NCBI GenBank assembly: GCA_017477485.1
Contig: JAFUVR010000037.1
Coordinates: forward strand, 6,949 to 70,948
Length of the DNA: 64,000 nucleotides
Reading direction: 5' to 3'
From: Bacteroidales bacterium
Lineage (GTDB): Bacteria > Bacteroidota > Bacteroidia > Bacteroidales > P3
The notes under the pieces are model-generated. The model ran no database searches, was not told where the DNA came from, and saw nothing but the letters and a program-made list of their open reading frames with translations. Shown here in pieces: positions 3,661-63,819 of this stretch. Position 1 is the first letter of the stretch. Every line of letters starts with the position of its first letter. The translations under genes and the position numbers were made by a program.

Positions 3661-3792
3661 CCCCCATCGCCCACACATCTTCGCCCCTGCAGACACCTCC
3701 TATAGGCAAAAAAACAACAAAGAAACAAGCACATATACAACAAAATAGACAATAACGAGAAAAAATAATTTTGTCGGAATAAAAAAAGAGCT

Positions 3793-3800
3793 TATCTTTG
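3793..3800 (+). promoter_or_regulatory. -7 promoter box TATCTTTG for tRNA-Ala
   Basis: Consensus TAnnTTTG 16 nt upstream of the tRNA 5' end. Confidence 0.5.
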
Positions 3801-3815
3801 CAAACCGAAAACGAT

Positions 3816-3889
3816 GGGGTATTAGCTCACTTGGCTAGAGCGTTTGACTGGCAGTCAAAAGGTAATCGGTTCGATTCCGATATACTCCA
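3816..3889 (+). tRNA. tRNA-Ala (anticodon GGC)
   Basis: Cloverleaf by hand: acceptor GGGGTAT/ATACTCC with the G3:U70 Ala identity pair, anticodon stem TTTGA/TCAAA, loop CTGGCAG, T-loop GGTTCGATTCC. No encoded CCA. Confidence 0.9.
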
Positions 3890-3978: not shown

Positions 3979-4051
3979 GGGGTATTAGCTCATCTGGTAG
4001 AGCGTTTGGTTCGCAATCAAAAGGTAATCGGTTCGAGTCCGATATACTCCA
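3979..4051 (+). tRNA. tRNA-Ala (anticodon CGC)
   Basis: Same acceptor stem with G3:U70, anticodon loop TTCGCAA, T-loop GGTTCGAGTCC. Confidence 0.9.
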
Positions 4052-4111: not shown

Positions 4112-4864
4112 ATGAGGCCCAACCATCATTTCACCATCGTGTGCCTGCTCCTTGCCGTATGGATGTTCGGTGCCTGCGAAAAGACATCCGATGAAGCACA
4201 GCATGGCACAGTCCTCCTACAGGACTTCCCATTGTTGCAGCAAACGACCGATTACACATGTGGCAACACCTCGGCCCTCATGGTCCTCCGCTATTATGGC
4301 ATTGACGATGTGACCGAAGAGCAACTCGCCGTAGCCATGCATACCCACTCCGCCTCCGACCTTGACACGGTCAAGCCCGGCACGGCGCGACAACTGCTGG
4401 ACTATGGCACCAGCGTGGGCGAGATGTGGAACTACTTCGCCCAACGGACGGACTTCCGCATCGTGGCCTCCAGCTATGGGCAGGCGGACAGCCTGCCCCT
4501 GCTTGCCGACACCGCCCTCGTAGGCATACAGGCTGTCGGCAACCACGACCGTCCCTTTGCCGACTATGACGAGGCGGCACAATTCCTCGTCTCGCACATC
4601 AGACAAGGACGTCCCGTCATGGTATGCTGGAATCTGTGGGGCGGCCACTGGACGGTATGCATAGGCTATGACGACAATGCCACACCGTCGTTCTATGACG
4701 ACGACATCCTCGTCATGGCCGACCCCTACGACACCACCGACGGCAAGACAGAAGGGCTCACGCGCGTGAGCCTCGTCCAGTTCTTCTACGACTGGTTCTG
4801 CATCATGACGCCTAAACCATGGCAGCTCCAGCCCTATCTCGTCGTGGAGCGCATCCGCTCATAA
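4112..4864 (+). CDS. Lipoprotein, papain-like cysteine peptidase of the C39-like family
   Basis: Lipobox LLLAVWMFGAC. Candidate Cys nucleophile context TDYTCGNTSALMVLRYYG and His context GGHWTVCIGYDD. Confidence 0.65.
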   Translation: MRPNHHFTIVCLLLAVWMFGACEKTSDEAQHGTVLLQDFPLLQQTTDYTCGNTSALMVLRYYGIDDVTEEQLAVAMHTHSASDLDTVKPGTARQLLDYGTSVGEMWNYFAQRTDFRIVASSYGQADSLPLLADTALVGIQAVGNHDRPFADYDEAAQFLVSHIRQGRPVMVCWNLWGGHWTVCIGYDDNATPSFYDDDILVMADPYDTTDGKTEGLTRVSLVQFFYDWFCIMTPKPWQLQPYLVVERIRS

Positions 4865-5143
4865 ACCCTGGCCCTTCGGAGGGTTAGAGTCATTCTACAG
4901 CCTCTTCATTCTGCAACGGGCCACCTCGACGCAACAAGACGATGCATGCGGCGTGGTCTTGCATACACTGAAAAAAAAGGCGGAGACATGGGACGAATGC
5001 TGACGTCCCGTAGCAGGCCTGCCCGACAGCAAGAGAATCCGTATTTGCCTTCAGCCCGGAATGCGGAAAGCAGCGATTGCCACGGTTTGTCGGGAAAGGG
5101 ACTCTCCGAGGCCGTCGGCAATCCAAAGTTAAATTTTTTTTTG

Positions 5144-5151
5144 TACCTTTG
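5144..5151 (+). promoter_or_regulatory. -7 promoter box TACCTTTG
   Basis: 31 nt upstream of ATG 5182. Confidence 0.45.
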
Positions 5152-5181
5152 CAGAATTAACAATAAACAAGGAGGATAGCC

Positions 5182-6696
5182 ATGACGAACCATGATCTGA
5201 TGCAGCTTTTGAAAGAAGGAAAGATAGACGAAGCACACACCCATGCACTGGCCGACTATGAGCAGCAGGCCGACGATTCTGCGAGGCTGAACCTCGCCCT
5301 TGCCAAGGCAGCGCTGTGCGGACAGCAGGCCGAAGCGGGCGACTACGAAGGTTTTGCAGAGCAGCTGAGAGGGCTGTCGGACATCAAGGCATTGCCGATA
5401 GTACGGATTTCCAACACGCTCTGCTGGTCGTTTCTCAAGATGGCCAACCGTATGAGCGGCAGTCCCGAGGAGATGGCCCTGCGGTGCGACAGCATGGGCC
5501 ACTACGCCATGCAGCTGAATCCAGAACGGCCCAGCCAGAACGCGTCAATACTCTGCAAAGCCATGCTGGTGCTGCGCAAGAAGCACGGGTGGAGCCACTT
5601 TGCCACCTTCATGGACTGGTTCGGATGGGACGCCTTCCGGCTGGAAGACTACCAGTGCGAAGAGATGAGCGAGCGGCGGCGGATGCCCGTCTCGCTGGTT
5701 GAGAGTGCCTACGCGGCCTATGCACGAGACCTGCTGCACCGAGGCAATCAAGAGGCCATAGCGACCTTCTTGCCGCGCATGGAGGCCATGAGCGAACAGC
5801 ATCCCGAGATGACGTGGGTGGCCTACTACACTGGAAAGCTCCTCATAGCCCTTGGCAATCTCAACGACGACACCCGCCGGCGTGTCAAAGCCTTCGTCAA
5901 ACGCAAAAACCGCGATTTCTGGGCCTGGGACATGCTGGCCGACGTGGCCGGCGACGACGAGCTGCGCATGGCATGCTATTGCAAGGCCCTCACCTGCCCC
6001 TCGGAAGAACTCATGAAGCGGAACGTGCACATCAAACTGGCACGCCTGCTCCACGCCAAGGGGATGGATAGCGAGGCCAAAGCCGAATACCGCGCCATCA
6101 TGGCCGCCCTGCGGGCCGGGGGCTACACCGCCCCGCAGTACCTTGTCGAGATAGCGGCTGAAGAATGGTATCAACATGCCGCAGCACCTGACAACAATCG
6201 ACAATTCTACTACACGCTTGTACCGAAAGCCGAGGCATTTCTCTACGCCGGCATTGAAGAGCAAGACCTCTTCATCACCTACATCAACACCGAGAAACGC
6301 ACGGCACGCTACGTCACCAAGAACCATCAGGAGGGATTTCTCCACACCACGCACCTCAACCGTGGAAGGGGGGTGGCCCTCTATCACGTCTATCGCTGTC
6401 GCATGGAGCATGACGGACAACGCACACAGGTGTACACCTGCACCGAGATGACCGACATGGCACCCTATGAGGGCATCTTCATCCGTCGCGAGACAGGGGT
6501 ACTGAAAACCCTTGCCACAGGCACCGCCTTCGTGAACGGAATATTCGTTACCAAGGCGCTGGCCGAACCTTATGACAACGGGACGCATGTAGCCGTAAAA
6601 GCCATACTCAACTACAACAAAATCAAGCAAGAATGGAGTTGGCGTGCTCTGAAGCTGGCACCCGTCGAAAGCAGTGCGACCGACAGACAGCAATAG
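5182..6696 (+). CDS. Hypothetical protein: long alpha-helical (TPR-like) region plus C-terminal S1/cold-shock-like OB-fold
   Basis: 504-aa ORF with native codon usage. The C-terminus ETGVLKTLATGTAFVNGIFVTKALAEPYDNGTHVAVKAILNYNKIKQEWSWRALKL has the beta-strand pattern of an S1/CSD OB-fold. Confidence 0.6.
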   Translation: MTNHDLMQLLKEGKIDEAHTHALADYEQQADDSARLNLALAKAALCGQQAEAGDYEGFAEQLRGLSDIKALPIVRISNTLCWSFLKMANRMSGSPEEMALRCDSMGHYAMQLNPERPSQNASILCKAMLVLRKKHGWSHFATFMDWFGWDAFRLEDYQCEEMSERRRMPVSLVESAYAAYARDLLHRGNQEAIATFLPRMEAMSEQHPEMTWVAYYTGKLLIALGNLNDDTRRRVKAFVKRKNRDFWAWDMLADVAGDDELRMACYCKALTCPSEELMKRNVHIKLARLLHAKGMDSEAKAEYRAIMAALRAGGYTAPQYLVEIAAEEWYQHAAAPDNNRQFYYTLVPKAEAFLYAGIEEQDLFITYINTEKRTARYVTKNHQEGFLHTTHLNRGRGVALYHVYRCRMEHDGQRTQVYTCTEMTDMAPYEGIFIRRETGVLKTLATGTAFVNGIFVTKALAEPYDNGTHVAVKAILNYNKIKQEWSWRALKLAPVESSATDRQQ

Positions 6697-6795
6697 ATCC
6701 TCATCGCGCCACGCTGCGGGAGAGCCCGCCACACATAATCCGAACAACGAGACGAAAGGCAGACGGATTTTTGCCAAAAAAAGCCAGTTTTTTTC

Positions 6796-6803
6796 TATCT
6801 TTG
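6796..6803 (+). promoter_or_regulatory. -7 promoter box TATCTTTG
   Basis: Upstream of cls (ATG 6936). Confidence 0.4.
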
Positions 6804-8947: not shown

Positions 8948-9049
8948 TCTGTCACCGCCGACCCCCGCATGCAATGGCCGCACAAGGCGATAGCAGACAC
9001 GGCTGCCAGACGCAGACACCAATTATTTGGCTGCATTGAAAAAAAGATT

Positions 9050-9057
9050 TATTTTTG
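9050..9057 (+). promoter_or_regulatory. -7 promoter box TATTTTTG
   Basis: 35 nt upstream of ATG 9092. Confidence 0.45.
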
Positions 9058-18433: not shown

Positions 18434-18495
18434 GGGTTGGGATTTATGGAACAGACTACAAAATTAATATTTTTAGCCGTGTGAGCAAAAAAATG

Positions 18496-27381: not shown

Positions 27382-27402
27382 GGCGTTAGATTTTTGAGTG
27401 TG

Positions 27403-27410
27403 CAAAGGTA
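27403..27410 (-). promoter_or_regulatory. -7 promoter box TACCTTTG (minus strand) for prs
   Basis: + strand CAAAGGTA, 22 nt upstream of ATG 27381. Confidence 0.45.
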
Positions 27411-27462
27411 GTACTATTTTTGCGACCTACAAAAAATATTTTGTCGGTTGTGAAAAAGTGCG

Positions 27463-27470
27463 TATTTTTG
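27463..27470 (+). promoter_or_regulatory. -7 promoter box TATTTTTG for the tRNA-Leu/tRNA-Val pair
   Basis: 27 nt upstream of the tRNA-Leu 5' end. Confidence 0.45.
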
Positions 27471-27496: not shown

Positions 27497-27580
27497 GCCC
27501 AGGTGGCGGAATAGGTAGACGCGTCGGTCTCAAAAACCGATGGGGTAACACCCGTGCCGGTTCGACCCCGGCCCCGGGTA
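27497..27580 (+). tRNA. tRNA-Leu (anticodon CAA), class II with long variable arm
   Basis: Anticodon stem TCGGT/ACCGA, loop CTCAAAA, variable arm TGGGGTAACACCCGT, T-arm GCCGG-TTCGACC-CCGGC. The acceptor GCCCAGG/CCCGGGT carries G1.U72 and an A5.C68 mismatch. Confidence 0.8.
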
Positions 27581-27593
27581 CACAAGACGGATA

Positions 27594-27668
27594 GGGAGTT
27601 TAGCTCAGCTGGTTCAGAGCGCTTGCCTTACAAGCAAGAGGTCATTGGTTCGAGCCCAATAACTCCCA
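27594..27668 (+). tRNA. tRNA-Val (anticodon TAC)
   Basis: Acceptor GGGAGTT/AACTCCC, anticodon stem CTTGC/GCAAG, loop CTTACAA, T-loop GGTTCGAGCCC. Confidence 0.9.
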
Positions 27669-32713: not shown

Positions 32714-33037
32714 TTATTCAGAAAGGAATATCTCGCAAGTCTCGAAGTTTATCTCCCAGTGGCCGTTCTCGGTACCTTGCCATTGATACTGGGCAGCCAT
32801 GCGGTCCCACCAGTTTTGAAATTTAGTGCCTGTCTCGCCCATATCCTTCACCAGTTTCTGATAGAGGACGTCGTTATCGGGAGTGAGAATTTTGGCCAAC
32901 TCGCTGAGGCCGTTGCGGCGTTCGAAGAGACTCTGTATCTCGTCGCGTTCCTCGGCAGTTACATATCCGATTTTTGTCTTCATGGTTCGTGTTTTTTCAA
33001 TGATATTTTGTTTGACATCTGTTATGAAATCAACCAT
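32714..33037 (-). CDS. Small accessory protein of the CXXX-repeat peptide modification system
   Basis: 107-aa ORF (internal start MKTKIGYVTAEERDEIQ at 32983 is equally possible). Predicted helical. It sits 11 nt upstream of tatA and 51 nt downstream of the SPASM gene. The family name is from memory of NCBI/TIGRFAM naming. Confidence 0.6.
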   Translation of the reverse strand: MVDFITDVKQNIIEKTRTMKTKIGYVTAEERDEIQSLFERRNGLSELAKILTPDNDVLYQKLVKDMGETGTKFQNWWDRMAAQYQWQGTENGHWEINFETCEIFLSE

Positions 33038-33088
33038 GCTTGATTGACAACCTAACCCTGGTCAATTGTTTTCTTGGTCAGGCGAAAG

Positions 33089-34036
33089 TTACCATTCTTT
33101 ACGCACGTCGAAGGGGTCGCTGTAGTCTATTTCCTTTATCTCCACTTCGGACATGAAGGTTGCCTTCTCCCTTACGTTCGCCAGCAACCGTCGCGTGGTT
33201 TCGCGCTCGGTGTGTGCCATGACACATTGCTCATGGCTTGGTGTATTCACCTCGTAAGTCATCTTGCGGTTCAGCCACACGCAGCGACGGCAATGCCACA
33301 CATCGCAGTGGCGGCACAGCGGGGCATGGTCCAGCCGCAACAACTGAGGGTTGCGGATGTCAAGTCCCTCCGCCACGGATCCCACGTTATCATCGGCATC
33401 AGTGTAGTAGAACGCCGGACAGAGGTAGAACCGCCCATTAGGTGCCAATGTGATGTTCTCTACGCCAGCGTTGCAGTGGTTAGGTTTATCCAGCATCATG
33501 CGGTCGGTTAGCAGGTTCAACTGCGGTGCGCACCCTGTAAGATACTCCGCCTTCACGACCTCCGCCAGCGTGTCCAGCACCTCTCTGTACTTCGGCAGCT
33601 CGGCATCCGTAATAGTCTCCACGTCGGTAATCACCACGTTGAGCCGTGCCACCTGCTGCGTCAACTGAGCCACAGCATCGACCGACTTGAAGAGCCCCGC
33701 CTTCGTTATCCGCAGCACGTACGGCACATTTCGGAGAACGGGCGACTCGCCCGAGAGTCCGTCCATGACCACCACATCGGGTTCCTGCACAGGTCTGTCG
33801 CCCGTGCCCCACGGCACAATGTCGTGGTGGTCAATGGTGTCTATTACGTCCAGATACTCCTGCGGCAGTGCGTAGTTGGGATAGACCATCTGCACCATCA
33901 AGTTCTCCATCATGGCATAGCGAATGCTCATGCGCAAGTCGTCGAGACCTATCAGTCGGCGTTCCTTGTGGGGATTGTCGCAATGGCAGTAGCTCACCGA
34001 TGTGTCGTCCAACAGTATTACAAGATATTGCATCAT
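33089..34036 (-). CDS. SPASM-domain protein lacking the canonical radical SAM CxxxCxxC motif (CXXX-repeat peptide maturase-like)
   Basis: Start chosen at MMQYLVILLDDTSVSYCHC (34036, 4 nt after the upstream stop); alternative ATG at 34081. The N-terminus has only CHC. The C-terminal Cys cluster is HCNAG..LCPAF..LCRHCDVWHCRRCVW..EQC. Confidence 0.7.
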   Translation of the reverse strand: MMQYLVILLDDTSVSYCHCDNPHKERRLIGLDDLRMSIRYAMMENLMVQMVYPNYALPQEYLDVIDTIDHHDIVPWGTGDRPVQEPDVVVMDGLSGESPVLRNVPYVLRITKAGLFKSVDAVAQLTQQVARLNVVITDVETITDAELPKYREVLDTLAEVVKAEYLTGCAPQLNLLTDRMMLDKPNHCNAGVENITLAPNGRFYLCPAFYYTDADDNVGSVAEGLDIRNPQLLRLDHAPLCRHCDVWHCRRCVWLNRKMTYEVNTPSHEQCVMAHTERETTRRLLANVREKATFMSEVEIKEIDYSDPFDVRKEW

Positions 34037-34040
34037 GACT

Positions 34041-35288
34041 TTAGCAGATTTCGGGGTTAGACTTACGGTGATTTTTCTCATACTCCTCACGGTGCTCCTC
34101 CAGTTCCAACTTACGGTAGAGCTTGTTCCAGTAGTAGTTGTTGGCCCGCACACGGGCTTTGTGCATCAGGCAAATGGCTGTCGAACGTTCATAGATAGTG
34201 TTGGTCCGTGCGGCATCGTAGTTCTCGCCCTGACACCATGCACAGCCACTCGCCACCTCGCAATCGAGGCACTTTTGTGGGCTCTGCGTCACACGATCCA
34301 GCGTCAGGAACGGCCGCAACAGGTTCTGGTTGATACCATCCTTGATGTTGCCGATAACGAGTGCTCTCTTCTCTCGCAGCGAATACTGCGCAAAGCGTGT
34401 GCAGGGGTACAATTTGCCCGCGGCGTCCACGCTCAGCATCCGTCCCGCGCCGCACCAGTTCTGGTTATCGCGCTCTGGATCCAGCGGTTTGCCTATCTGC
34501 TCGCTGAAGAACGAGCAGGCATAGTCCTCATAATAGCCACCGTCAATGATGGCATCGGCCAGTGTCATCAGCTGTTCCTCGAAGCGACTATCATCGCCCT
34601 CCTGCCACACATCCTCGAACACCACGTTGATGTTCACCTGATGGATGCCCAGCGAATAGAGGTGTAGCACACTTTCCGTGATATACGGAATGTCGGTACT
34701 GCTGATGGTTACCTTCGTCCCCGCATCAGGAAACTGCTTTAGCCACAGCGGGATGTTACGCACCACGTCGTTGTACGACCCTTTGTCCGACGACAGCGTG
34801 ATGCCGTTGGGGTCAGTGGATGGCTGCTTGTACACACGGTTCATATCGTGCTTCCGCTCCGTGCCGTCGATGGTGATACCTATCGACAGGTGGTCGCGGT
34901 TCTTCTCGATAAAACGCTGCACCTCGGGCGTGTGATAGTTGATGCCGTTGGTCGAGAACGAGAAACGGTACGAGTTGAACCAGTGATGGTTCAGTTCGAA
35001 CATACGCAACTTCAGGTAGTCGCATATGCGGTCAATCAGTGCAATCTCCAGAAATGGCTCACCGCCGATGAAGTCCCAAATCACACTTTCTTCCGGAAAT
35101 TCGCTCTCATGCGATAAAACATAGTCAATAAACTCCTTGGCCGTTTCCCACGACATCCGCTCTTTCATGTTCTTCCCCACCAAGTAGCAATACTTACAGG
35201 CCAGCTGACAGTCCTTCGTGACGATAAATGTAATATTCTTCGCCATGCCAGACTGCCATAGCAATGTTTCTTTTTTTATAGTATTCAT
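34041..35288 (-). CDS. Radical SAM/SPASM peptide maturase (anaerobic sulfatase-maturase-like), CXXX-repeat target type
   Basis: Radical SAM cluster motif ITFIVTKDCQLACKYCY. SPASM cysteines are WCGAG..YPCTRF..CLDCEVASGCAWCQG..AIC. Confidence 0.85.
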   Translation of the reverse strand: MNTIKKETLLWQSGMAKNITFIVTKDCQLACKYCYLVGKNMKERMSWETAKEFIDYVLSHESEFPEESVIWDFIGGEPFLEIALIDRICDYLKLRMFELNHHWFNSYRFSFSTNGINYHTPEVQRFIEKNRDHLSIGITIDGTERKHDMNRVYKQPSTDPNGITLSSDKGSYNDVVRNIPLWLKQFPDAGTKVTISSTDIPYITESVLHLYSLGIHQVNINVVFEDVWQEGDDSRFEEQLMTLADAIIDGGYYEDYACSFFSEQIGKPLDPERDNQNWCGAGRMLSVDAAGKLYPCTRFAQYSLREKRALVIGNIKDGINQNLLRPFLTLDRVTQSPQKCLDCEVASGCAWCQGENYDAARTNTIYERSTAICLMHKARVRANNYYWNKLYRKLELEEHREEYEKNHRKSNPEIC

Positions 35289-35351: not shown

Positions 35352-36074
35352 CTAATTAATTTTTATTACCTGACTTGCTGGTGGGAAAACAAAAGACATC
35401 CCATAACAACTCCCTGTACAAAAACCAGCACAATTCCCGATACAGGAACTTGTACACAACGTTTTGCAACTATATTCACATGATTCCTTACAACTATGTT
35501 TACATGATTCCTTACAGGAATAATAGCATGACTCCTTACAGGTCTCAGAACAGGAACCACTACATCCTGATTTACAATCATGAGAACATGACTGCGCGCA
35601 ATTTGTAGTACATGTCCCACTGCACGTACTTTTACACCCACCAGAACAAGACGATTTACATCCAGCCTTACAGCTATCTTTGCACCCACCAGAGCAATCG
35701 CGACAACTTGAAGAAGTACTATGACTATTAGAGCTAGAACTATTGGAAGACGACCCCGCACAACTATAGCCACATGAGCCACTACATTGGTAATAGCACG
35801 AGCCTTGACATGTCCCTGTGCATCCTTGACACAGATTTGAACAGGAACCGCTACAACTACTTTTACATCCACCATAACATAACTGATAACATGTTTCAGT
35901 ACATGCAGTAGCACATGAATACGGGCATCCTGTAGGATGCAATTTCCCATCTGCTGCCGATGACATATCTACAACTGCTACCATTCCCAAAAGAGGAAGT
36001 AACCCATTGGCTGCCACTTTAAAGAAGGTCCTTCTGCTTTGTAATTTGTCTTCTTTTTTCATATCGTTTTTCAT
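35352..36074 (-). CDS. Tat-signal CXXX-repeat polycysteine protein (putative radical SAM substrate)
   Basis: Start at ATG 36074 (MKNDMKKEDKLQ) or 36062. Twin-arginine motif SRRTFFK plus an h-region and SSA-A. It has 41 Cys in two blocks (15 + 26), with 37 CX3C and 2 CX2C spacings, separated by the Ser/Asn linker AGSSSNSSSSNSHSTSSS. Confidence 0.8.
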   Translation of the reverse strand: MKNDMKKEDKLQSRRTFFKVAANGLLPLLGMVAVVDMSSAADGKLHPTGCPYSCATACTETCYQLCYGGCKSSCSGSCSNLCQGCTGTCQGSCYYQCSGSCGYSCAGSSSNSSSSNSHSTSSSCRDCSGGCKDSCKAGCKSSCSGGCKSTCSGTCTTNCAQSCSHDCKSGCSGSCSETCKESCYYSCKESCKHSCKESCEYSCKTLCTSSCIGNCAGFCTGSCYGMSFVFPPASQVIKIN

Positions 36075-36087
36075 AACTACAGGGTAT

Positions 36088-36334
36088 AAAAAAACCGCGG
36101 GCTTCTGTTGAGGCTCGTGGTTCTGGACTACCATCTATCAAACAAGAAAGCTCGCGATTGCTCACGAGCGTTCCGCTTCTTGTTGATAGATAAACAAATT
36201 TGTCCAGAATTTGAGCCTATCAAGAAAGCAAAAACGCTTTTTATCTATTTCCCTTCGATTCTAAATCTTCTCTATATTATTCGTATTCAGTTATTTTTTA
36301 TATACTACATTCACGGATTTGCACCACAAATATA
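36088..36334 (-). promoter_or_regulatory. Promoter (-7 box TATATTTG 36327-36334, -33 TTTG 36354-36357) plus ~245-nt structured leader, copy 1
   Basis: Nested helices at 36121-28/36202-09, 36135-48/36177-89 and 36150-69. Hairpin plus U7 at 36088-36120. The core is repeated at 63600-63730 (see findings). Confidence 0.6.
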
Positions 36335-36755
36335 CAAAAATTTTGTTTTGATACAAAGACCGTTAAATTAACACTTGTTTTTTTCAAGAAACATCCCTCG
36401 TCCGCCGTTATCGGGGCCTCCCCTGCGGCTTAGACCTTCTTTACGCATTTTCTTAATGTTTATCATCAGTCTTTATGGAAAAATGCAATGCCGCAGCGAT
36501 TTCAGCGTTGGATACTTCCGAATTGTTCGTAACCAGTCCCACATTTTTCACCCCACTTTTGGGGTAAATCATCTATTCTGCAAACATTATACGGAACGTT
36601 GAATCTGAGTAAATTGCCTCTACAGTCAAAACGTACCCTACCATACGGATGCAATGTGCGAAGCATTCCTAAATCCATCAGTTAAGGATAATAGCACAAC
36701 AGAAGGACAAAGGCGGAAAACGCAGATTAGAATTGCCGTTTTGGTGTGGAAATCG

Positions 36756-36763
36756 TATCTTTG
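36756..36763 (+). promoter_or_regulatory. -7 promoter box TATCTTTG
   Basis: 17 nt upstream of ATG 36780. Confidence 0.45.
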
Positions 36764-36779
36764 CGGCCTGTTTTCTGCG

Positions 36780-38279
36780 ATGCTGACAGTGACACACATA
36801 GTAGGTATCTTGCTGACCGTTGGGCTACTGCTGGTTATCGGCGTAATGTCGGGCCGGAAGGTGAAAGACGCGCGGGGTTTTGCCATAGGAGGCAAGGCTG
36901 GCAGCTGGATGGTGTGCGGCATCATTATGGGCACACTGGTAGGCGGACAATCGACCATAGGGACGTCGCAGATGGCCTACTGTTATGGCCTTTCGGCATG
37001 GCTCTTCTCGGCGGGAGTGGCTCTGGGCAGTCTGATACTGGGGTTGGTCTATACCGTGCCACTGCGGCGAAGCGGCTGTATGACCCTGGCAGAAATCATA
37101 GCCAAAGAATACGGCCACAAGGCCGAGACCATCGGGTCGTTGCTCTGCATGACCGGCATGTTTATCAGCATTGTGTCGCAAGTGATAGCCTCAACGGCAA
37201 TGATGACCTCGATGTTTGAGATGGAGCACACGGTGGCCGCGGTGTTGTCGGCGGCACTGATAGCTGCTTTCGTTTTCTTCGGCGGCATACGCAGTGCGGG
37301 GCTGGGAGGCATACTGAAGCTGGTGCTGCTCTACGTGGCATCGCTGACAGCGGCGGTGGTGGTGTGGCGGCTTTCGGGCAGCATAGGCAACGTTTACGAC
37401 AGCCTACACGAGGTCATGGAGACCCCCACCATTGCTGACCTCAATGGATTGTCCACATCGGAGTCCATAGACCATCGCTACGCCAACCCCGTAGGACGAG
37501 GTGTGGCGAAGGATATAGGGTCGGCCATCTCGCTGATTCTTGGCGTGCTGGCCACACAGACCTACGCCCAAGGCATTTGGGCCGCCCGCAGCGATCGCCA
37601 TGCGCGACGTGGCGCCGTGTGGTCGGCGCTGTTGGTGCCCGTCATAGGGGCGGCCTGCACACTGATTGGACTCTACATGCGTGGCCACTATATCACCCAC
37701 GAGGAACAGGCGGCACTGCTGGCCGCCGGCGAGCAAGTGCCCGAAGGAGTGAGGGTGATAGCCCACACTGCCGAGGTGTTTCCCCGATTCATCTTGGACA
37801 ACTGTCCAGCATGGATAGGGGGCATCGTGCTGGGCACCCTCTTCGTCACCATCCTCGGAGGCGGCAGCGGACTGACGCTGGGCACGGCGACAATACTGGT
37901 GCGCGACGTGTTCAGCAATATTCCTCGCCGCGACGGGGGACACTACGGTGAGTCGAAGAGCCTCTACCGTTTCAGCATCGTCTTCTTAGTCGGTATGGCG
38001 TTACTGGTGTCGCTGCTGAACAACCGAACACTCATCAACGAACTTGGCTTTCTCTCGCTGGGGCTACGTGCCACGGCGCTGCTGGTACCGTTGAGTGCGG
38101 CGCTCTTCATGCCCGGACGATTCAAACGCTACGAGGTCATCATGTCCATGGTCGTGGGCTGTGTCACCATGATTGCAGCCTCATCGCTCAGCCTACCGGG
38201 CGACGCCATCTTCTGGGGCATGGGCTCCGAACTGCTCATCATGGCAGCAGCCAGTGTCTACAGGAAGCACTCACACTGA
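36780..38279 (+). CDS. Sodium:solute symporter (SSS) family transporter
   Basis: Start at ATG 36780 (MLTVTHIVGILLTVGLLLVIG). About 13 TM segments, with GGKAGSWMVCGIIMGTLVGGQSTIGTSQ. Confidence 0.75.
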   Translation: MLTVTHIVGILLTVGLLLVIGVMSGRKVKDARGFAIGGKAGSWMVCGIIMGTLVGGQSTIGTSQMAYCYGLSAWLFSAGVALGSLILGLVYTVPLRRSGCMTLAEIIAKEYGHKAETIGSLLCMTGMFISIVSQVIASTAMMTSMFEMEHTVAAVLSAALIAAFVFFGGIRSAGLGGILKLVLLYVASLTAAVVVWRLSGSIGNVYDSLHEVMETPTIADLNGLSTSESIDHRYANPVGRGVAKDIGSAISLILGVLATQTYAQGIWAARSDRHARRGAVWSALLVPVIGAACTLIGLYMRGHYITHEEQAALLAAGEQVPEGVRVIAHTAEVFPRFILDNCPAWIGGIVLGTLFVTILGGGSGLTLGTATILVRDVFSNIPRRDGGHYGESKSLYRFSIVFLVGMALLVSLLNNRTLINELGFLSLGLRATALLVPLSAALFMPGRFKRYEVIMSMVVGCVTMIAASSLSLPGDAIFWGMGSELLIMAAASVYRKHSH

Positions 38280-56378: not shown

Positions 56379-56669
56379 CGGTTTGCAAATTTACATTAAT
56401 TCCACCAAACAAGCCACAAACGCACGAAAAAAAAATCACTGTGCACATCCAAGAGGTGAAAGAAAGGACACCTACGAGGGCAACCTATCGTTATTCTTGA
56501 AGGCTGTCAATAGAAACATCCTCACTCATCATTATGGGTGTTGGCTTCTTGTCAAACCCAAAAGAGAACCATTAGAAACGACTATTTGCCGAACCAATGG
56601 GCATGACTTGTTTTGCAAAAGCGAGGCAATGCTAACCATGCCTGAGACAACGCCGTGTAGCATTCGCTA

Positions 56670-58896: not shown

Positions 58897-61425
58897 TTAG
58901 TTTTCTACGCGTATTGGACGAACGCATCCAAGATAACCACTAGTATATTCGCTACCACCACTATATCCGTTATCATATTCCCATCTACAATAATTACGAC
59001 TTCCTGATACCCATATGATAAAAAGATAACTACTACTATCTGAAGCAATACTTGAAGAATGATAAACGATTTTGTTGCCGGTTCTAAAACCACCTATTAT
59101 TTCCTTATACTGCCACATAGTTATCAGTTCATCAATGGTAGGCAACCTCCAATCATCATAGCTATAAGCTGCAAGCTGCTCACAATATAGCTGTGCACCT
59201 CGCCAAGACACATAAAAACCGGGATCGGGTGCTACTCGATAAGTATGGCCTTCAAAAACAAATGTCGGCAACATCAAATAATCCACGTCAACTTTGATTT
59301 GTTCGCCATAAGACGTGCCATTTGCATTGGTGGCGTATGCACGGACATAAAAGGTTCTTCCAACATTGATATCGACTACCGAAGTGAAATAGCCAGAGCC
59401 TGTGCCATCATTTGTATGGGCATAGGTCGCAGTGAGGTCTGGATTGGGATATACGCCATAAACGATGCCTCGCGCCGTTATGGGGAATCCGCCATTGTCG
59501 GTTATATGTCCCCCTGATACCACGTTGTCTCCACTTAAAGATGCAGCGGTAGTTGTGACCGTTGGCAATCCATCATGTGTTGTAAATGATATCTGTTCGC
59601 CATAGGTAGTTTCTATACTGGTAGTGGCATAGGCTCTGACATAATAGGTGGTGCCCATCTCAAGATTTGTCAATGAAGAAGTAAATGTTCCATTGCCGCC
59701 ACCTTCGATGCTATGGCTACCCATGATGGTCGGAAATTGCGTTGTGCTCCAACAAAGGCCTTTAGCCGTAACCACAATTCCACCGTTGCTTGTAACACTT
59801 CCCGTATATGTAGCCGTTGTAGCCGTGATATTGTTCACATTTCCAATGGAAATAGTAGGTCTGCCATTATTTGTTGTAAATGTAACCTCATTACCATAGG
59901 ATGTGAGGTGATTATTCGTGGCATACGCCCTCACATGATATGTTGTATTTACTGAAAGGTTATTCATATTGCAAACAAACGTGCCAGTGCCTGCTCCACT
60001 GGCAACATGAGCATCGTGTATGTCAGGATTGCCCGTAGTATTCCAGCAAATGCCTCGTTCGGTGACATCAAGTCCAGCATTGTCTGTTATATTGCCACCG
60101 CATTTTGCTGATGTCGCAGTTATATTTGAGGCAGCTGTAGTAGTCATCGAAACGATGCCCGACCTCGTGGTAAATGTTAGTTCGTTGCCATAGGCAGTAC
60201 CAACACTATTTGTGGCATATGCCCGCACATGATAAGTAGTGCCCGGCGTTAAATTAGTCATATTGCTACCGAACGTGCCATCACCTGATCCATCAGTGGA
60301 ATGAGCATTTTGTATATCTGGATTGCCTGTAGTATTCCAACAGACGCCACGTTCCGTAACACGAAAACCTCCATTATCAGTGATAGTACCTCCTCCTTTA
60401 GCAGAATTGCCAGTAATATCGCTGATTTCTTTCGTAGATAACGATGGCAGACCATTGGTGGTGACGAAACTCTTCTGCGGTCCATAGGAAGTGCCGCACG
60501 AGTTGGTTGCGTATGGACGATAATAGTATGTTATGCCTGGTTCAAGGTTCTGCAGGGTATGTCTGAATGCTCCCGTATCGGCACCATCGGTAGTGACATT
60601 GTCGCTGATGGTGGGTTCCTGCGTCTTAGCATAAACAAAACCGCGTTCTGTGATGGCATCGCCGCCATCATCGGACACCGTGCCGCCAATGGAGGCGGAA
60701 GTGGCCGTAATATTGGTGGCATCATAGGTGCTCAGTGTGGCCTCACCACTTTGTGTCGTGAACATTTTTTGCGCACCAAACGTAGTGGCAATATTGTTGG
60801 TAGCATAGGCACGCACATAGTAGGTTGTGGACTTGGTCAAGTTTGTCAGATTAATGGAATACTCGCCGAGACCCGTTCCAGCAGTGATAACCGAATCATC
60901 GAGTGTGGGAGTCTGATGCGTGGCATAGCAGATACCACGGACTAAGATTTCGTGTCCGCCATCGGCTGTAACATCGCCCGATACCCTTGCCGACAAAGCC
61001 CGTATAGCATTTACATCATTTGTCGTCACCCATGGCAGCAAATCGGCGTTGGTCTTGTCGTAGAGGATAATGTTTTTGTAGTCATAGACTTTGGAGCCAA
61101 GACCCATAAGAGGCTCTTGTCTGGACGGCAGGTCAAGAGCGGTACCATCAAGCCAGAGGTAGCAGTCGTCGCCAAGTTCGTCAAAGTTGACATCGGTAAG
61201 TTTGAACCTTCCGTTGCGGTCAGTAACACTCACGGCATAGACATGCGAGCCATCGGTAACCTGCACCGACACACCCTCCACGGGCTGCATGCTGCTTTTC
61301 TCCACCACAGTGCCTATATACTGTGTGGTGGTGCTTATACCTTCTTTTTCCAAATCTTTGACGCAGGCCCACACCATGCATAACACGGCGGCAGCAATGA
61401 TATACAATAAACTTCTTTTTTTCAT
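58897..61425 (-). CDS. Large surface lipoprotein: CarboxypepD_reg-like domain, six tandem ~98-aa Ig/FN3-like repeats, C-terminal DUF1566 (Lcl C-terminal)-like domain
   Basis: Lipobox VWAC. Contains GVSVQVTDGSHVYAVSVTDRNGRFKL. The repeats end in TTY(Y/H)VRAYATN..G..YG....FTT. The C-terminus WRLPTIDELITMW resembles DUF1566. Confidence 0.75.
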   Translation of the reverse strand: MKKRSLLYIIAAAVLCMVWACVKDLEKEGISTTTQYIGTVVEKSSMQPVEGVSVQVTDGSHVYAVSVTDRNGRFKLTDVNFDELGDDCYLWLDGTALDLPSRQEPLMGLGSKVYDYKNIILYDKTNADLLPWVTTNDVNAIRALSARVSGDVTADGGHEILVRGICYATHQTPTLDDSVITAGTGLGEYSINLTNLTKSTTYYVRAYATNNIATTFGAQKMFTTQSGEATLSTYDATNITATSASIGGTVSDDGGDAITERGFVYAKTQEPTISDNVTTDGADTGAFRHTLQNLEPGITYYYRPYATNSCGTSYGPQKSFVTTNGLPSLSTKEISDITGNSAKGGGTITDNGGFRVTERGVCWNTTGNPDIQNAHSTDGSGDGTFGSNMTNLTPGTTYHVRAYATNSVGTAYGNELTFTTRSGIVSMTTTAASNITATSAKCGGNITDNAGLDVTERGICWNTTGNPDIHDAHVASGAGTGTFVCNMNNLSVNTTYHVRAYATNNHLTSYGNEVTFTTNNGRPTISIGNVNNITATTATYTGSVTSNGGIVVTAKGLCWSTTQFPTIMGSHSIEGGGNGTFTSSLTNLEMGTTYYVRAYATTSIETTYGEQISFTTHDGLPTVTTTAASLSGDNVVSGGHITDNGGFPITARGIVYGVYPNPDLTATYAHTNDGTGSGYFTSVVDINVGRTFYVRAYATNANGTSYGEQIKVDVDYLMLPTFVFEGHTYRVAPDPGFYVSWRGAQLYCEQLAAYSYDDWRLPTIDELITMWQYKEIIGGFRTGNKIVYHSSSIASDSSSYLFIIWVSGSRNYCRWEYDNGYSGGSEYTSGYLGCVRPIRVEN
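59284..61029 (-). repeat. Six tandem coding repeats (~294 nt / 92-98 aa each) inside the 842-aa lipoprotein
   Basis: Hand-delimited units starting VTTNDVNA, QSGEATLS, TNGLPSLS, RSGIVSMT, NNGRPTIS and HDGLPTVT. The conserved core is ITERG.CW.T..NP....H...G.G.G.F...L.NL...TTY.VRAYATN. Confidence 0.8.
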
Positions 61426-61430
61426 GATTG

Positions 61431-62264
61431 TCAGAAATTAAGGGTTAGACCAAAACCTGCGGCAGCCTCGTCGCCAACGGGAGTGATGGCAGGATAGAAC
61501 GATAACGCTCCGTCGTCCTTCCTATACTTGGGCGACATGGAGTAGGCCCTGTAGAGGTTGAACACATAGAGTGCAGCCGCCGCAGAGAAAGAGGCGATGT
61601 TGACCGTACGCAAGGTGTTGTACGACTTCTTAGCTGCACTGAAGTCACCGATGCTTGTGGCGTTGTCCTTCATAATATTCAACTTGCTCTTTGCCATACT
61701 ATAGGAGGCCACACCCGTACCGATTAAGGCAACCTCGCCGATCAACGTGAACACGCCATTAGCCACACGGTTCTTACCCATCTGTCCAAGGCCTGGCATG
61801 ATGGCCGATTTGAAGAGTGCCGAAGAGTTGCTATAAGTGTTGATGTCGTTGCAGGCAGTGAATTCCGAAAAAACGGGATAGACACTGCCCGAGGTGGCAA
61901 CCATACACAGTACTGTGGCAACAAAGCCGTTATTGGTCTTGCGCATATATTCGCATACCTTGTTGACAGGGATGTTGAACTGCATAGCAACAGCACCCCA
62001 TTCGGCACCGCCCTGCAAACTCTTGTTGACCTCGTCCCACGAGACCGTGGTGCCGATACGCATCATAGTGCTTTGGAATACACGTGCCATAGCACGGTTA
62101 AGAGCCTCACTTGGCGTAGAACCCGACCCTGTCTCACGCACAAAGACGTAGGTGCTGTTCTCGGCCTTGGGTAGCGTGGTGACCCAGCCGGGCTTATCAA
62201 CCTCCTGCCCAATGGCAGAAAGAACCATAAAGAGAAAAAGAATAGGTAAAAGAATTTGTTTCAT
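61431..62264 (-). CDS. LPP20-like domain protein with a C-terminal membrane domain
   Basis: Start at MKQILLPILFLFMVLSAIGQ (62264). The N-domain is paralogous to 62291..62731 (PGWVTTLP / PRWVTQLP; NKVCEY in both). The C-terminal half has PGLGQMGKNR and hydrophobic segments. Confidence 0.6.
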   Translation of the reverse strand: MKQILLPILFLFMVLSAIGQEVDKPGWVTTLPKAENSTYVFVRETGSGSTPSEALNRAMARVFQSTMMRIGTTVSWDEVNKSLQGGAEWGAVAMQFNIPVNKVCEYMRKTNNGFVATVLCMVATSGSVYPVFSEFTACNDINTYSNSSALFKSAIMPGLGQMGKNRVANGVFTLIGEVALIGTGVASYSMAKSKLNIMKDNATSIGDFSAAKKSYNTLRTVNIASFSAAAALYVFNLYRAYSMSPKYRKDDGALSFYPAITPVGDEAAAGFGLTLNF

Positions 62265-62290
62265 GGTAGTATTGTTATACAAATCAAAAT

Positions 62291-62731
62291 CTATCTGCAA
62301 TCTCGGAAATCGTCAAACAATGGAGACATATTGCCGTAGCGTGCCACCTGCCAAAGAATGTAAATCTTGACGTTTCTCGACGTTGTCGGTTTCTCGACAT
62401 ATTCGCACACCTTGTTGAGTGGCAGCACCATCTGGGTCTCAGCGACATTGATATTTTCGGTTATACCCTTTTCGAGCACGTGTATGTCGTTCTTGGTGTC
62501 AACCGTAACGCCCAGTTTCCACGAACTCTCAAGAATAGCGGTAGCAAAAGCCTTGGCGTAAGCCTTCTCGTAGGTGTTGGCTTCGGCATGGGTAACACGA
62601 TAATAATAGGTCTCGTTGCTCGGCTCGGGCAACTGCGTAACCCATCGTGGCAGAGCAGAATATGTCTGCGAGACAACGCTCGCAGACATTCCTACAAACA
62701 TCAGAATAAAGAAAATGTATCGCATAATCAA
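62291..62731 (-). CDS. LPP20-like secreted protein
   Basis: Signal peptide, then LPRWVTQLPEPSNETYYYRVTHAEANTYEKAYAKAFATAI. 4-nt overlap with the upstream gene. Confidence 0.6.
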   Translation of the reverse strand: MIMRYIFFILMFVGMSASVVSQTYSALPRWVTQLPEPSNETYYYRVTHAEANTYEKAYAKAFATAILESSWKLGVTVDTKNDIHVLEKGITENINVAETQMVLPLNKVCEYVEKPTTSRNVKIYILWQVARYGNMSPLFDDFRDCR

Positions 62732-63426
62732 TAGCCAGCCTCTTTCTTTGAATCCTTCATGGCCTGCAGACGCTCGTCCATGAATTTCTGGAATTGGGCG
62801 GCGTTGAAGTCAATTCTATCGCTCTCTGCAGCAGCGACAGCCAGTTTTTGCTGCAACTCCACAACAGGAATTTCGACCACATAGTAGGCATCCCATGTGC
62901 CACGATTATTCTGAAAACATTTGTCACAGGTTTTTCGGGCACGGTTCAGCATACCTTCGACCACACTCATCATGCCTCCTTCCATTTTACTCTGCATATC
63001 ATTTCCAGCACTATTGCCCATAACGTTTCGCACATAGTCGGTGGAAAGACCTTGAACAAACTCGGCCATTTTATCTTTACAAACTTGTTTGGCTGCTAAT
63101 TCTGCAGCACGACGAGCTTGCATCTCATTGGCATTGGAGCCGATGCCCAATTCACGGATGTATGCGTCATCATCGTAAGATAAATCAACACAAGGCAACT
63201 CAACATACGTGCCGCGAGCATTCCGCTGTGTTCTTATTGCGTTAAGGGAGTCCATGATTAATTGCCGTTTCATAGCCTCTACTTCCGCCTGAAATTTCTG
63301 TTCCGCATCCCAAGCGGCTTTCTTGGCGGCTCTCTTTTCTTTGCGCGTCTGCGCCATCATGGGGTTGCTTACGGCCACCGACATGGCGATAATGAACAAC
63401 GAGAGAATAAACTTGATGTGTTTCAT
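62728..63426 (-). CDS. Secreted coiled-coil plus LPP20-like domain protein
   Basis: Signal peptide MKHIKFILSLFIIAMSVAVSNPMMAQ, a Lys-rich helix, and then IRELGIGSNANEMQARRAAELAAKQVCKDKMAEFV. Confidence 0.6.
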   Translation of the reverse strand: MKHIKFILSLFIIAMSVAVSNPMMAQTRKEKRAAKKAAWDAEQKFQAEVEAMKRQLIMDSLNAIRTQRNARGTYVELPCVDLSYDDDAYIRELGIGSNANEMQARRAAELAAKQVCKDKMAEFVQGLSTDYVRNVMGNSAGNDMQSKMEGGMMSVVEGMLNRARKTCDKCFQNNRGTWDAYYVVEIPVVELQQKLAVAAAESDRIDFNAAQFQKFMDERLQAMKDSKKEAGY

Positions 63427-63505: not shown

Positions 63506-63547
63506 AAAAAAAATCCCTGACCTTGCGTTTTCGCTTGATCAGGGATT
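63506..63547 (-). terminator. Strong intrinsic terminator inside the leader of the 63426 operon
   Basis: AATCCCTGA (63512-20) / TCAGGGATT (63539-47), 18-nt loop. An A8 run on the + strand gives U8 after the hairpin on the minus transcript. It lies 80 nt upstream of ATG 63426. Confidence 0.7.
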
Positions 63548-63819
63548 CCGTTAAGACAACAAAAAAATCCGCAGACTTATATTTCTTTATGTGTGCTGGG
63601 GTTCTGGACTACCTACTATCACATACAAGAAAGCCCACGGATGTCCGTGAGCGTTTCCCAGCCTTCTCTGTGATAGTGATGAAATTGTCCAGATTTCAGC
63701 ACACAAAAAAGCGAAAAACGCATTTTTTATGATAATAAATCCTCTAAACTCTTTTTATTAAGTTCCTTATAACTAAAGTATTAATTATTAATCGGGGTTA
63801 TAACACGTCCACAAAAATA
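63548..63819 (-). promoter_or_regulatory. Promoter (-7 box TATTTTTG 63812-63819) plus structured leader, copy 2
   Basis: The core 63600-63730 is collinear with 36119-36244. Helices at 63602-09/63687-93, 63616-23/63669-76 and 63636-40/63645-49. Confidence 0.6.

Follow-up and report, generated by a model that had tools for sequence, protein, structure and literature searches.

A leader RNA family of probable attenuator type, with two conserved folds, upstream of CXXX-repeat peptide operons in Bacteroidales

Described leader systems and their relation to the present leader

In the trp-type attenuators of E. coli, pairing of leader segment 1 with segment 2 and of segment 3 with segment 4, the latter forming a terminator followed by a U tract, excludes pairing of segment 2 with segment 3, which forms the antiterminator; segments 1 and 3 are alike, as are segments 2 and 4, and the decision between the two arrangements falls during transcription. 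The leader described here, from the minus strand of a 64,000-nt stretch of Bacteroidales contig JAFUVR010000037.1 (hereafter, the window), has the same predicted logic but differs in the absence of a conserved leader peptide or regulatory codons and in the addition of a helix designated X:X', of complementary loops on the tips of its two domains and of a hairpin, P1, that competes with segment 1. A survey of homologues for upstream ORFs revealed no ATG-initiated ORF at a conserved position, and none at all in locus L008; because no such ORF is conserved, ribosome-mediated attenuation was rejected. To our knowledge, translation-coupled attenuation of the trp type has not been established in Bacteroidales.

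Riboswitch expression platforms, those of purine riboswitches above all, resemble the leader in their 5' position, in a closing helix that has its 3' strand in common with one arm of a terminator and in the presence of two hairpins with complementary loops. They differ from it in that the present leader shows no evident ligand-binding core conserved across subfamilies, contains a long extra hairpin between the kissing hairpins, matches no Rfam aptamer and precedes a gene set that is not a metabolic pathway. A third group of systems depends on antitermination factors, among them the NusG paralogues UpxY of Bacteroides capsule operons and LoaP of antibiotic gene clusters in Firmicutes, as well as ANTAR proteins and BglG with its RAT target. 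As far as is generally known, the feature common to these and the present leader is a long 5' leader with a terminator before an operon for surface structures or secondary metabolites. By analogy, macromolecular control would fit the lack of invariant nucleotides noted below if each subfamily of the leader has its own partner. No gene for a NusG-like, ANTAR or PRD protein was found among the operon genes or in the divergent neighbour, which does not exclude a factor encoded elsewhere. An arrangement of dual hexaloops of the ANTAR type was rejected on the grounds that the apical loop of the present leader, unlike ANTAR hexaloops, varies among homologues in both length and sequence.

Refolding through kissing loops, as in ColE1 RNA I/RNA II and in the fold-back of hok, provides a further comparison. 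Here too, a pair of complementary loops of 6-7 bases could nucleate a long duplex, and long-range pairing of 5' and 3' ends is predicted in the full-length leader; the present case differs in that both loops are located in one molecule and in that the outcome would be a choice between terminator and antiterminator. Trans pairing between copies of the leader is no more than a possibility.

The DUF805b motif (Rfam RF02914), a cis-regulatory hairpin of Bacteroidetes, occurs in leaders related to the present one, between the U tract and the start of the CXXX precursor, but this 35-nt hairpin is distinct from the element, lies downstream of it and shares no homology with it. The motif was absent from the leader of the window by Rfam scan. 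Copies located approximately 20 nt upstream of precursor starts were noted in L083 (1127-1162 and 759-794, minus strand), L143 (1076-1111), L008 (598-633), L085 (2495-2530), L007 (3543-3578), L001 (2387-2422), L009 (3270-3305) and L005 (3576-3611); only L083 1127-1162 and the L143 copy scored above the gathering threshold, the rest falling below it.

The CXXX locus and its leader RNA

The original prediction, made from the letters of the window alone, had placed a promoter on the minus strand ahead of the leader, and a Bacteroidetes-type promoter is indeed present at 36327-36357 (-33 TTTG at 36354-57, -7 TATATTTG at 36327-34) as an exact match to TTTG-N17-23-TAnnTTTG. Nine matches to this pattern were found in the window compared with 0.66 expected. 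The pattern was also noted at 3770-3800, 6770-6803, 9026-9057, 18459-18489, 27393-27470 and 56386-56420, several matches adjoining tRNA genes (3816-3889, 3979-4051, 27497-27580 and 27594-27668). Transcription of the leader is inferred to start near 36320. The RNA-like region that follows the promoter and ends in a U7 tract (36088-36094) is approximately 233 nt long and consists of an A-rich 5' part (36241-36320), poorly conserved in alignments and devoid of a conserved small ORF, followed by the structured part (36088-36240). The U7 tract ends 13 nt ahead of the first ATG (36074) of the gene at 35352-36074, which encodes a Cys-rich CXXX-repeat precursor with a twin-arginine signal (TIGR04117 match). 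Judged from the N-termini of homologues, a start at the second ATG (36062) would fit better.

The remainder of the operon (32714-35288, minus strand) was identified by TIGR family matches and encodes an rSAM maturase (TIGR04115, 34041-35288), a CXXX maturase (TIGR04119, 33089-34153) and an associated protein (TIGR04116, 32714-33037). Together with the precursor, these genes are the known CXXX-repeat peptide system; the divergent neighbour of the operon encodes a sodium/solute symporter. As listed, the ORF of the second maturase has a GTG start and overlaps the rSAM gene by 113 nt. Homologues of this maturase begin MMQYLVILLDD, and the true start is for this reason probably the predicted ATG pair near 34020, just past the rSAM stop codon, with little or no overlap.

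Folding of a 266-nt region containing the leader gave -69 kcal/mol for the minus strand (z = -3.5 against shuffles). The plus strand also exceeded its shuffles (z = -4.2) and energy alone therefore cannot identify the transcribed strand. The original prediction had argued for an RNA of the same sense as the operon from one strand-specific pair in the apical helix, and this inference was borne out by homologues, in which such pairs are frequent: the many conserved G.U pairs indicate that the RNA strand is the sense strand of the operon. The same pairs bear on the idea, which we consider very unlikely, that the repeats represent either a constitutive 5' UTR structure (a stabiliser, processing site or translation modulator) or a DNA element (operator palindromes for an HTH protein or a mobile repeat), without any switching. 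The inverted repeats are also DNA palindromes, an HTH gene follows many copies, some copies lie near toxin-antitoxin and defence genes, and the plus strand folds as well as the minus. However, helix arms change freely while pairing is kept, and the many G.U pairs would read as A.C on the opposite strand or break the symmetry of a DNA palindrome as mismatches; loci without an HTH gene, including the window, keep the element; terminal repeats and target duplications are absent, and orientation relative to promoter and gene is fixed. Covariation in support of a second, incompatible fold, described below, would moreover be unexpected of a static structure. An operator or mobile repeat acting as DNA was rejected in view of the G.U pairs together with the free covariation of the arms.

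From its 5' end, the structured part begins with S1, or P1 (AAAGCGUUUUUGCUUU, 36225-36240), a small hairpin in one of the two folds described below (Fold R), the 5' part of which pairs in the other (Fold T) with a sequence designated S2. Segment 1 (GCUUUCUUGAUAG, 36217-36229) comprises the 3' arm of P1 and a linker, is similar to segment 3, and has segment 2 as its partner in Fold T. The strand X (GGCUC, 36213-36217), defined by covariation, is the 5' strand of the helix that closes the rod. It is followed by a hairpin, H_a (36195-36213), also supported by covariation, with arms CAAAUU and AAUUUG and the loop CUGGACA, the latter (outer-L, 36202-36208) being able to pair with GUCCAGA as either an outer helix or a kissing loop. 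Segment 2 (36163-36190) contains the middle-left arm (36176-90), the bulge S2 (CGGAAC, 36170-75) and the apical 5' arm (GCUCGUG, 36163-69). The apical loop (AGCAAU, 36157-36162) separates it from segment 3 (36134-36156), which contains the apical 3' arm (CGCGAGC, 36150-56) and the middle-right arm (36134-49) and has two alternative partners, namely segment 2 to form the antiterminator or segment 4 to form the terminator. A small hairpin, H_b (36119-36132; GGUA and ACC around the loop GUCCAGA), presents outer-R (36122-28), the complement of the H_a loop. Next is X' (CCACGAGCC, 36112-36120), also the 5' arm of a local terminator, in which GAGCC has two alternative partners, X in the rod and T3' in the local terminator. 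Segment 4 (36095-36111) comprises a tail (UCAACAGAAG, 36102-11) that mimics the middle-left arm and the T3' arm (GCCCGCGG, 36095-36102) that mimics the apical 5' arm; the U7 tract lies directly 3' of T3'.

Each of the three nested helices described in the original prediction was recovered, the outer helix at 36121-28/36202-09, the middle helix at 36135-48/36177-89 and the apical helix at 36150-56/36163-69, the last with a U.G pair on the minus-strand RNA. The third segment that it had singled out (36217-29) resembles the middle-right arm and is complementary to the middle-left arm (36177-89); this sequence is segment 1 of a four-segment attenuator, and its pairing to the left arm covaries. The terminator-like element (CCACGAGCC...GCCCGCGG plus U7, 36088-36120) is likewise present 13 nt before the ATG, with one correction: in the window, its hairpin contains two A.C clashes when read as the RNA strand, and its pairing is better when read as the plus strand. 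The clash arose through a U-to-C change in the lineage of the window (GCUCGCGG to GCCCGCGG, common to L082, L083 and L084), and homologues carry A-U at the clashing pair. T3' and U7 (36088-36102) satisfy the description of a terminator in sequence, with a stem that is weakened in the window by the A.C clashes; the U tract is present in all aligned homologues.

Two local features were noted in passing. The apical hairpin (36150-36169) followed by UUUCUUGUUU was scored as terminator-like by a simple scan and could be a site of pausing or early termination; in the L042-type subfamily, the stretch after this hairpin lacks U-richness. A perfect 12-nt match of complementary sequence, between the apical loop of the leader (36152-36163) and the precursor coding region (35692-35703), was reached by 3 of 100 shuffles, was absent from eight homologous loci and, being found only in the window, is probably due to chance.

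Homologues and covariation of the two folds

As the original prediction implied, the leader is conserved outside this genome. A plain blastn search with the leader matched 3 of 80 loci that encode relatives of the rSAM maturase, sampled from GTDB genomes, and profiles were needed for the others. An exact-pattern scan of metagenomes with conserved blocks yielded ten more real copies and two chance matches. R1, a covariance model built on the long hairpin, recovered all copies found by blastn and pattern scan and added diverged copies in L009, L001, L002, L012, L022 and L064, a second copy in L090, one copy in L143 and a second copy in the window (63558-63740; 86 bits, E = 5e-15). In a pattern scan of viral contigs, 50 matches were obtained, among which only L122 carried two weak candidates. 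A further subfamily was noted upstream of homologues of a small HTH gene (L011, L016, L025 and L029), and a third large subfamily (L042 type) was found with nhmmer profiles in approximately 32 more of the 80 loci. At least 43 of the 80 Bacteroidales CXXX/radical-SAM loci carry the element ahead of the operon, the copies falling into at least four sequence subfamilies, and its carriers are rumen and gut Bacteroidales (F082, Prevotellaceae, Muribaculaceae and Candidatus Limimorpha), including the cultured Xylanibacter rarus and Hoylesella loescheii. Conservation is high within a subfamily; across subfamilies, almost no nucleotide is invariant.

The statement that the leader belongs to no named RNA family also held. 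Rfam 15 covariance models gave nothing meaningful at E values up to 10 for window positions 35500-37000, no family matching the element on 20 related loci representing all subfamilies, and only tRNAs at gathering threshold over the whole window. No paper was found in a literature search based on conserved sequence strings and on regulation of the CXXX system, and the element was not found in the part of the supplement to a microbiome RNA survey that was searched. The leader is best described as a real, conserved and previously undescribed RNA family of the terminator/antiterminator type with two conserved folds, the mechanism being inferred rather than demonstrated.

Single-sequence folding of every member gave the same layout, a small 5' P1 followed by one long hairpin. 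This rod, or Fold R, is closed by X:X' and continues through the outer helix (in the window CUGGAC/GUCCAG), a long middle helix whose sequence is free, an asymmetric bulge and the apical helix; it leaves the U-tract-proximal arm T3' unpaired. In 19 sequences aligned to R1, 91% of cells were paired and 29 of 43 pairs had changed on both sides; none of 500 shuffles reached these values, and the signal was destroyed when partners were slid. The covariation expected of the predicted helices is in this sense above background, with the reservation that the sequences are related, so that shuffle controls overstate significance. Because the 19-sequence alignment had been fitted to the rod model, the test was repeated on A7, in which 26 L042-type leaders had simply been aligned with MAFFT, without reference to a structure. 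For X:X', all four pairs were compensatory among the 19 sequences (96% paired), compared with 7 of 8 pairs in A7 (90-95% paired), where one pair occurred as all four Watson-Crick types. The outer helix was 100% paired in both alignments, with compensatory changes in 5 of 7 pairs among the 19 sequences and two pairs split approximately evenly between C-G and U-A in A7.

Evidence for the alternative arrangement, Fold T, in which segment 1 pairs with segment 2 and segment 3 with segment 4 to form a long hairpin directly before U7, was obtained from half-molecules and from unfitted alignments. In every homologue of every subfamily, folding of the halves gave two domains, mostly well below shuffled energies: domain 1, in which S1 and the linker are paired to the middle-left arm and bulge with H_a at the tip, and domain 2, in which the apical 3' and middle-right arms are paired to the tail and T3' with H_b at the tip, ending exactly at the U tract. 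For the window, domain 2 was barely better than shuffles (-18.6 kcal/mol compared with -15.2 +/- 3.0). Complementarity of T3' to the apical 3' arm holds throughout the subfamilies despite differing sequences, as is evident from the pairs CGCGAGC/GCUCGCG, GGCGAGC/GCUCGCC, GGGCGUG/CACGCCC, UAGCGUGC/GCACGCUA, GGCGUGGA/UCCACGCC and GACGUGGG/CCCACGUC. This helix was the RNAalifold consensus of an unfitted alignment of 3' halves from all subfamilies (9 bp, 7 compensatory) and was 89% paired, a value reached by none of 500 shuffles; pairing of the middle-right arm to the tail was 98%. S1 is complementary to the bulge and the start of the apical 5' arm, and S1:S2 was the RNAalifold consensus when 5' halves were simply aligned with MAFFT (8 bp, of which 5 had compensatory changes), with 95.6% pairing in subfamily 3; in the pairing of the linker to the middle-left arm, 3 of 4 pairs had changed on both sides. 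Fold T was also the outright RNAalifold consensus of A7, with 96.8% pairing and changes on both sides in 12 pairs, which none of 500 shuffles reached. Since Fold R and Fold T both covary in A7, both folds are visible in one unfitted alignment, and the mutually exclusive helices foreseen in the original prediction are supported by compensatory changes in each of the two sets of pairings.

The tip hairpins were paired to a similar extent, H_a at 91% (4 of 6 pairs compensatory; 95% in an A7-based count) and H_b, the tip of domain 2 in all homologues, at 89% (97% in the A7-based count). Their loops are complementary, so that in Fold T the outer helix can take the form of a kissing contact. Covariation of H_a and H_b is not specific to Fold T because both could form in a four-way-junction version of the rod, which RNAalifold predicted from 12 sequences (X:X', H_a, the central hairpin and H_b).

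Precisely this junction figures in a rival explanation, that of a metabolite- or ion-sensing riboswitch, in which X:X' closes the junction, H_a and H_b kiss as in purine riboswitches, and a ligand stabilises X:X' and so blocks the terminator. The overlap of X' with the local terminator arm, and a complex conserved fold ahead of genes for enzymes that depend on SAM and Fe-S clusters, are in keeping with it. Known aptamers keep a fixed core, whereas almost no nucleotide of the present element is invariant across subfamilies and the junction residues vary; moreover, Rfam holds no matching aptamer, and the genes that follow copies of the leader encode regulators (XRE HTH, LytTR), lipoproteins and HicAB as opposed to one metabolic pathway. 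We regard a riboswitch as improbable. The original prediction had left the choice between riboswitch, attenuator and factor-controlled leader unresolved; attenuator-type logic is supported by the present results, and a metabolite riboswitch is the least favoured of its options.

The results refine the predicted architecture in three respects. The 3' terminator arm finds its universal partner in the apical 3' arm together with the middle-right arm, not only in the local CCACGAGCC; an additional closing helix, X:X' (36213-17/36112-16), overlaps the 5' arm of the local terminator; and the element, although it is the usual leader of CXXX operons, also precedes other genes. In L012, L009 and L001, the local terminator can coexist with the rod, and mutual exclusion is through pairing of the apical 3' arm with T3' only.

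Proposed mechanism, downstream genes and significance

In the absence of transcript data, we consider it probable that the leader is a bistable four-segment transcription attenuator of the CXXX operon mRNA, one that most likely decides whether the operon is transcribed. The pairings expected of such an attenuator, 1:2 with 3:4 as against 2:3, are mutually exclusive and each is conserved. The segments would be transcribed in the order 1 (S1 and linker), 2 (middle-left arm, bulge, apical 5' arm), 3 (apical 3' arm, middle-right arm), 4 (tail, T3') and U7. In Fold R, segments 2 and 3 would form the middle and apical helices, extended by CUGGAC:GUCCAG and closed by X:X', which would leave T3' single-stranded before U7 and allow RNA polymerase to read through into the operon. 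In Fold T, the hairpin of segments 3 and 4 would abut U7 as an intrinsic terminator and transcription would stop 13 nt before the start codon, while the complementary loops of the tips H_a and H_b could kiss. That termination and readthrough occur is inferred; conservation was shown for both sets of helices, through compensatory changes, and also for the promoter, U tract and co-oriented downstream genes.

With segments 1 and 2 made first, domain 1 would form first and the choice would be made during transcription. In prefix folding, domain 1 was the minimum-free-energy structure until segment 3 was complete, after which the rod was favoured. Barriers between the folds along direct paths were 20-52 kcal/mol, a crude, heuristic upper estimate, and it is because barriers between the completed folds are large that the choice must fall during transcription. 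Minimum-free-energy folding of single sequences always favoured the rod, by 5-20 kcal/mol without a kissing term. A kissing contact of 6-7 bp, which the nearest-neighbour model ignores, would, if assumed to contribute about -9 kcal/mol, narrow or reverse this advantage in several members.

As to the input of the proposed attenuator, our best guess, which is an inference, is either a trans-acting macromolecule (a protein, or an RNA such as the terminated leader made from a sister copy) or a cue of kinetic or physical nature. A small-molecule ligand with its aptamer was ranked below these because pairings are kept while hardly any nucleotide is invariant. A more speculative proposal, doubtful but not to be dismissed, is that the X:X'-closed junction with kissing H_a and H_b constitutes a new class of sensory RNA, which binds the signal that gates the exported CXXX peptides, this signal being either a small molecule or a sister copy's terminated leader RNA, which would dock through the shared CUGGACA and GUCCAGA loops. 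If this were true, the paralogous leaders of one genome would form a cross-talking regulon.

The position of the leader relative to other genes is informative with regard to a role in cis. A -7 box was present within 150 nt upstream of 48 of 57 copies compared with 3 of 55 control windows, and the U-tract-proximal arm is kept in every subfamily, in agreement with the original prediction of a leader that has its own promoter and terminator. The next gene is on the same strand in all copies and in most (approximately 60 copies) starts 0-83 nt past the U tract. Among L042-type loci, the first ORF is 16-83 nt downstream in 32 of 33 and is the CXXX precursor in 27 of 33, starting 48-83 nt past the U tract. 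In 12 loci the next gene is a small one of XRE-type HTH family that begins 0-55 nt past the U tract, the distance being approximately 2-6 nt in L005 and L092 and nil in the second L090 copy. With an ATG directly after the U tract, such HTH genes can be transcribed only through the terminator, and no promoter motif was found in those leader-to-gene spacers that were inspected. Other genes downstream of copies encode a LytTR-domain protein, a Gly-rich small peptide with a lipoprotein, HicAB and, after the second window copy, a lipoprotein operon.

These observations weigh on the possibility that the element is a free-standing, trans-acting sRNA of approximately 230 nt that ends at the terminator, with readthrough into downstream genes being incidental. 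Such an RNA would account for the separate promoter and terminator-like 3' end, for identical 7-nt and 14-nt loop sequences in copies from one genome (window copies 1 and 2; the two L090 copies) and for full-length minimum-free-energy folds, which pair the A-rich 5' end with the U tail in a stable rod. A free sRNA gene would not, however, keep the layout seen in approximately 60 copies, where the next gene is on the same strand 0-83 nt past the U tract and sometimes immediately after it; the position expected of a free sRNA was not met, all copies being co-oriented with the next gene. Nor would a free sRNA need conserved, mutually exclusive folds that make and unmake its own terminator. We consider this explanation distinctly unlikely and retain the attenuator as the preferred reading.

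The second copy in the window (63558-63740, minus strand), identified by R1, lies upstream of the lipoprotein operon and has all of the helices as well as a separate -7 box (63812-19). The H_a and H_b loops do not differ between the two copies, whereas all other arms do. Another hairpin and a U8 tract (63506-63544) follow this copy, then the four-gene lipoprotein operon (58897-63426), which includes an 842-aa Fn3/Lcl_C protein.

The HTH genes noted above encode proteins of 68-87 aa ending in ...DFF..YS (L005 3259-3462, L009 2957-3157, L001 2089-2292, L012 1576-1803, L022 7794-8012, L064 7791-8009, L090 5774-5977, and also L011, L016, L025 and L029), and their subfamilies track those of the leader; no homologue was found in the window. 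Leader copies outside plain CXXX operons (L005, L082, L092, L025, L009, L012, L087 and L122) occur among apparent toxin-antitoxin and defence genes, judged by eye without a domain scan, such as a ParE/RelE-like gene on the upstream side, genes of Fic, Abi-like and DUF3990-like type and, on a viral contig, a downstream hicA-hicB. Downstream of the leader in L084, L086 and L090 is a gene for a Gly/Ser/Tyr-rich peptide of 67-71 aa (…GFSYGN.Y…EGF.NGNSYGG.KFN) without a Pfam match, followed by one for a large lipoprotein; this peptide may be another modified-peptide precursor under the leader. In L143, genes for TatA, TatC and a C39 peptidase (4509-5598 and 5694-5915) follow the CXXX operon, which fits with export of precursors that carry a twin-arginine signal.

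Few cis-regulatory RNAs are known to us in Bacteroidota, and we know of no function or regulation of the CXXX-repeat radical-SAM peptide system. The leader described here, a new RNA family for annotation resources, is a clean natural example of a switch for which both alternative folds are visible by covariation. If the inferred mechanism is correct, the presence of a conserved two-state leader ahead of most CXXX operons in rumen and gut Bacteroidales would provide a direct experimental handle on the timing of CXXX peptide production.
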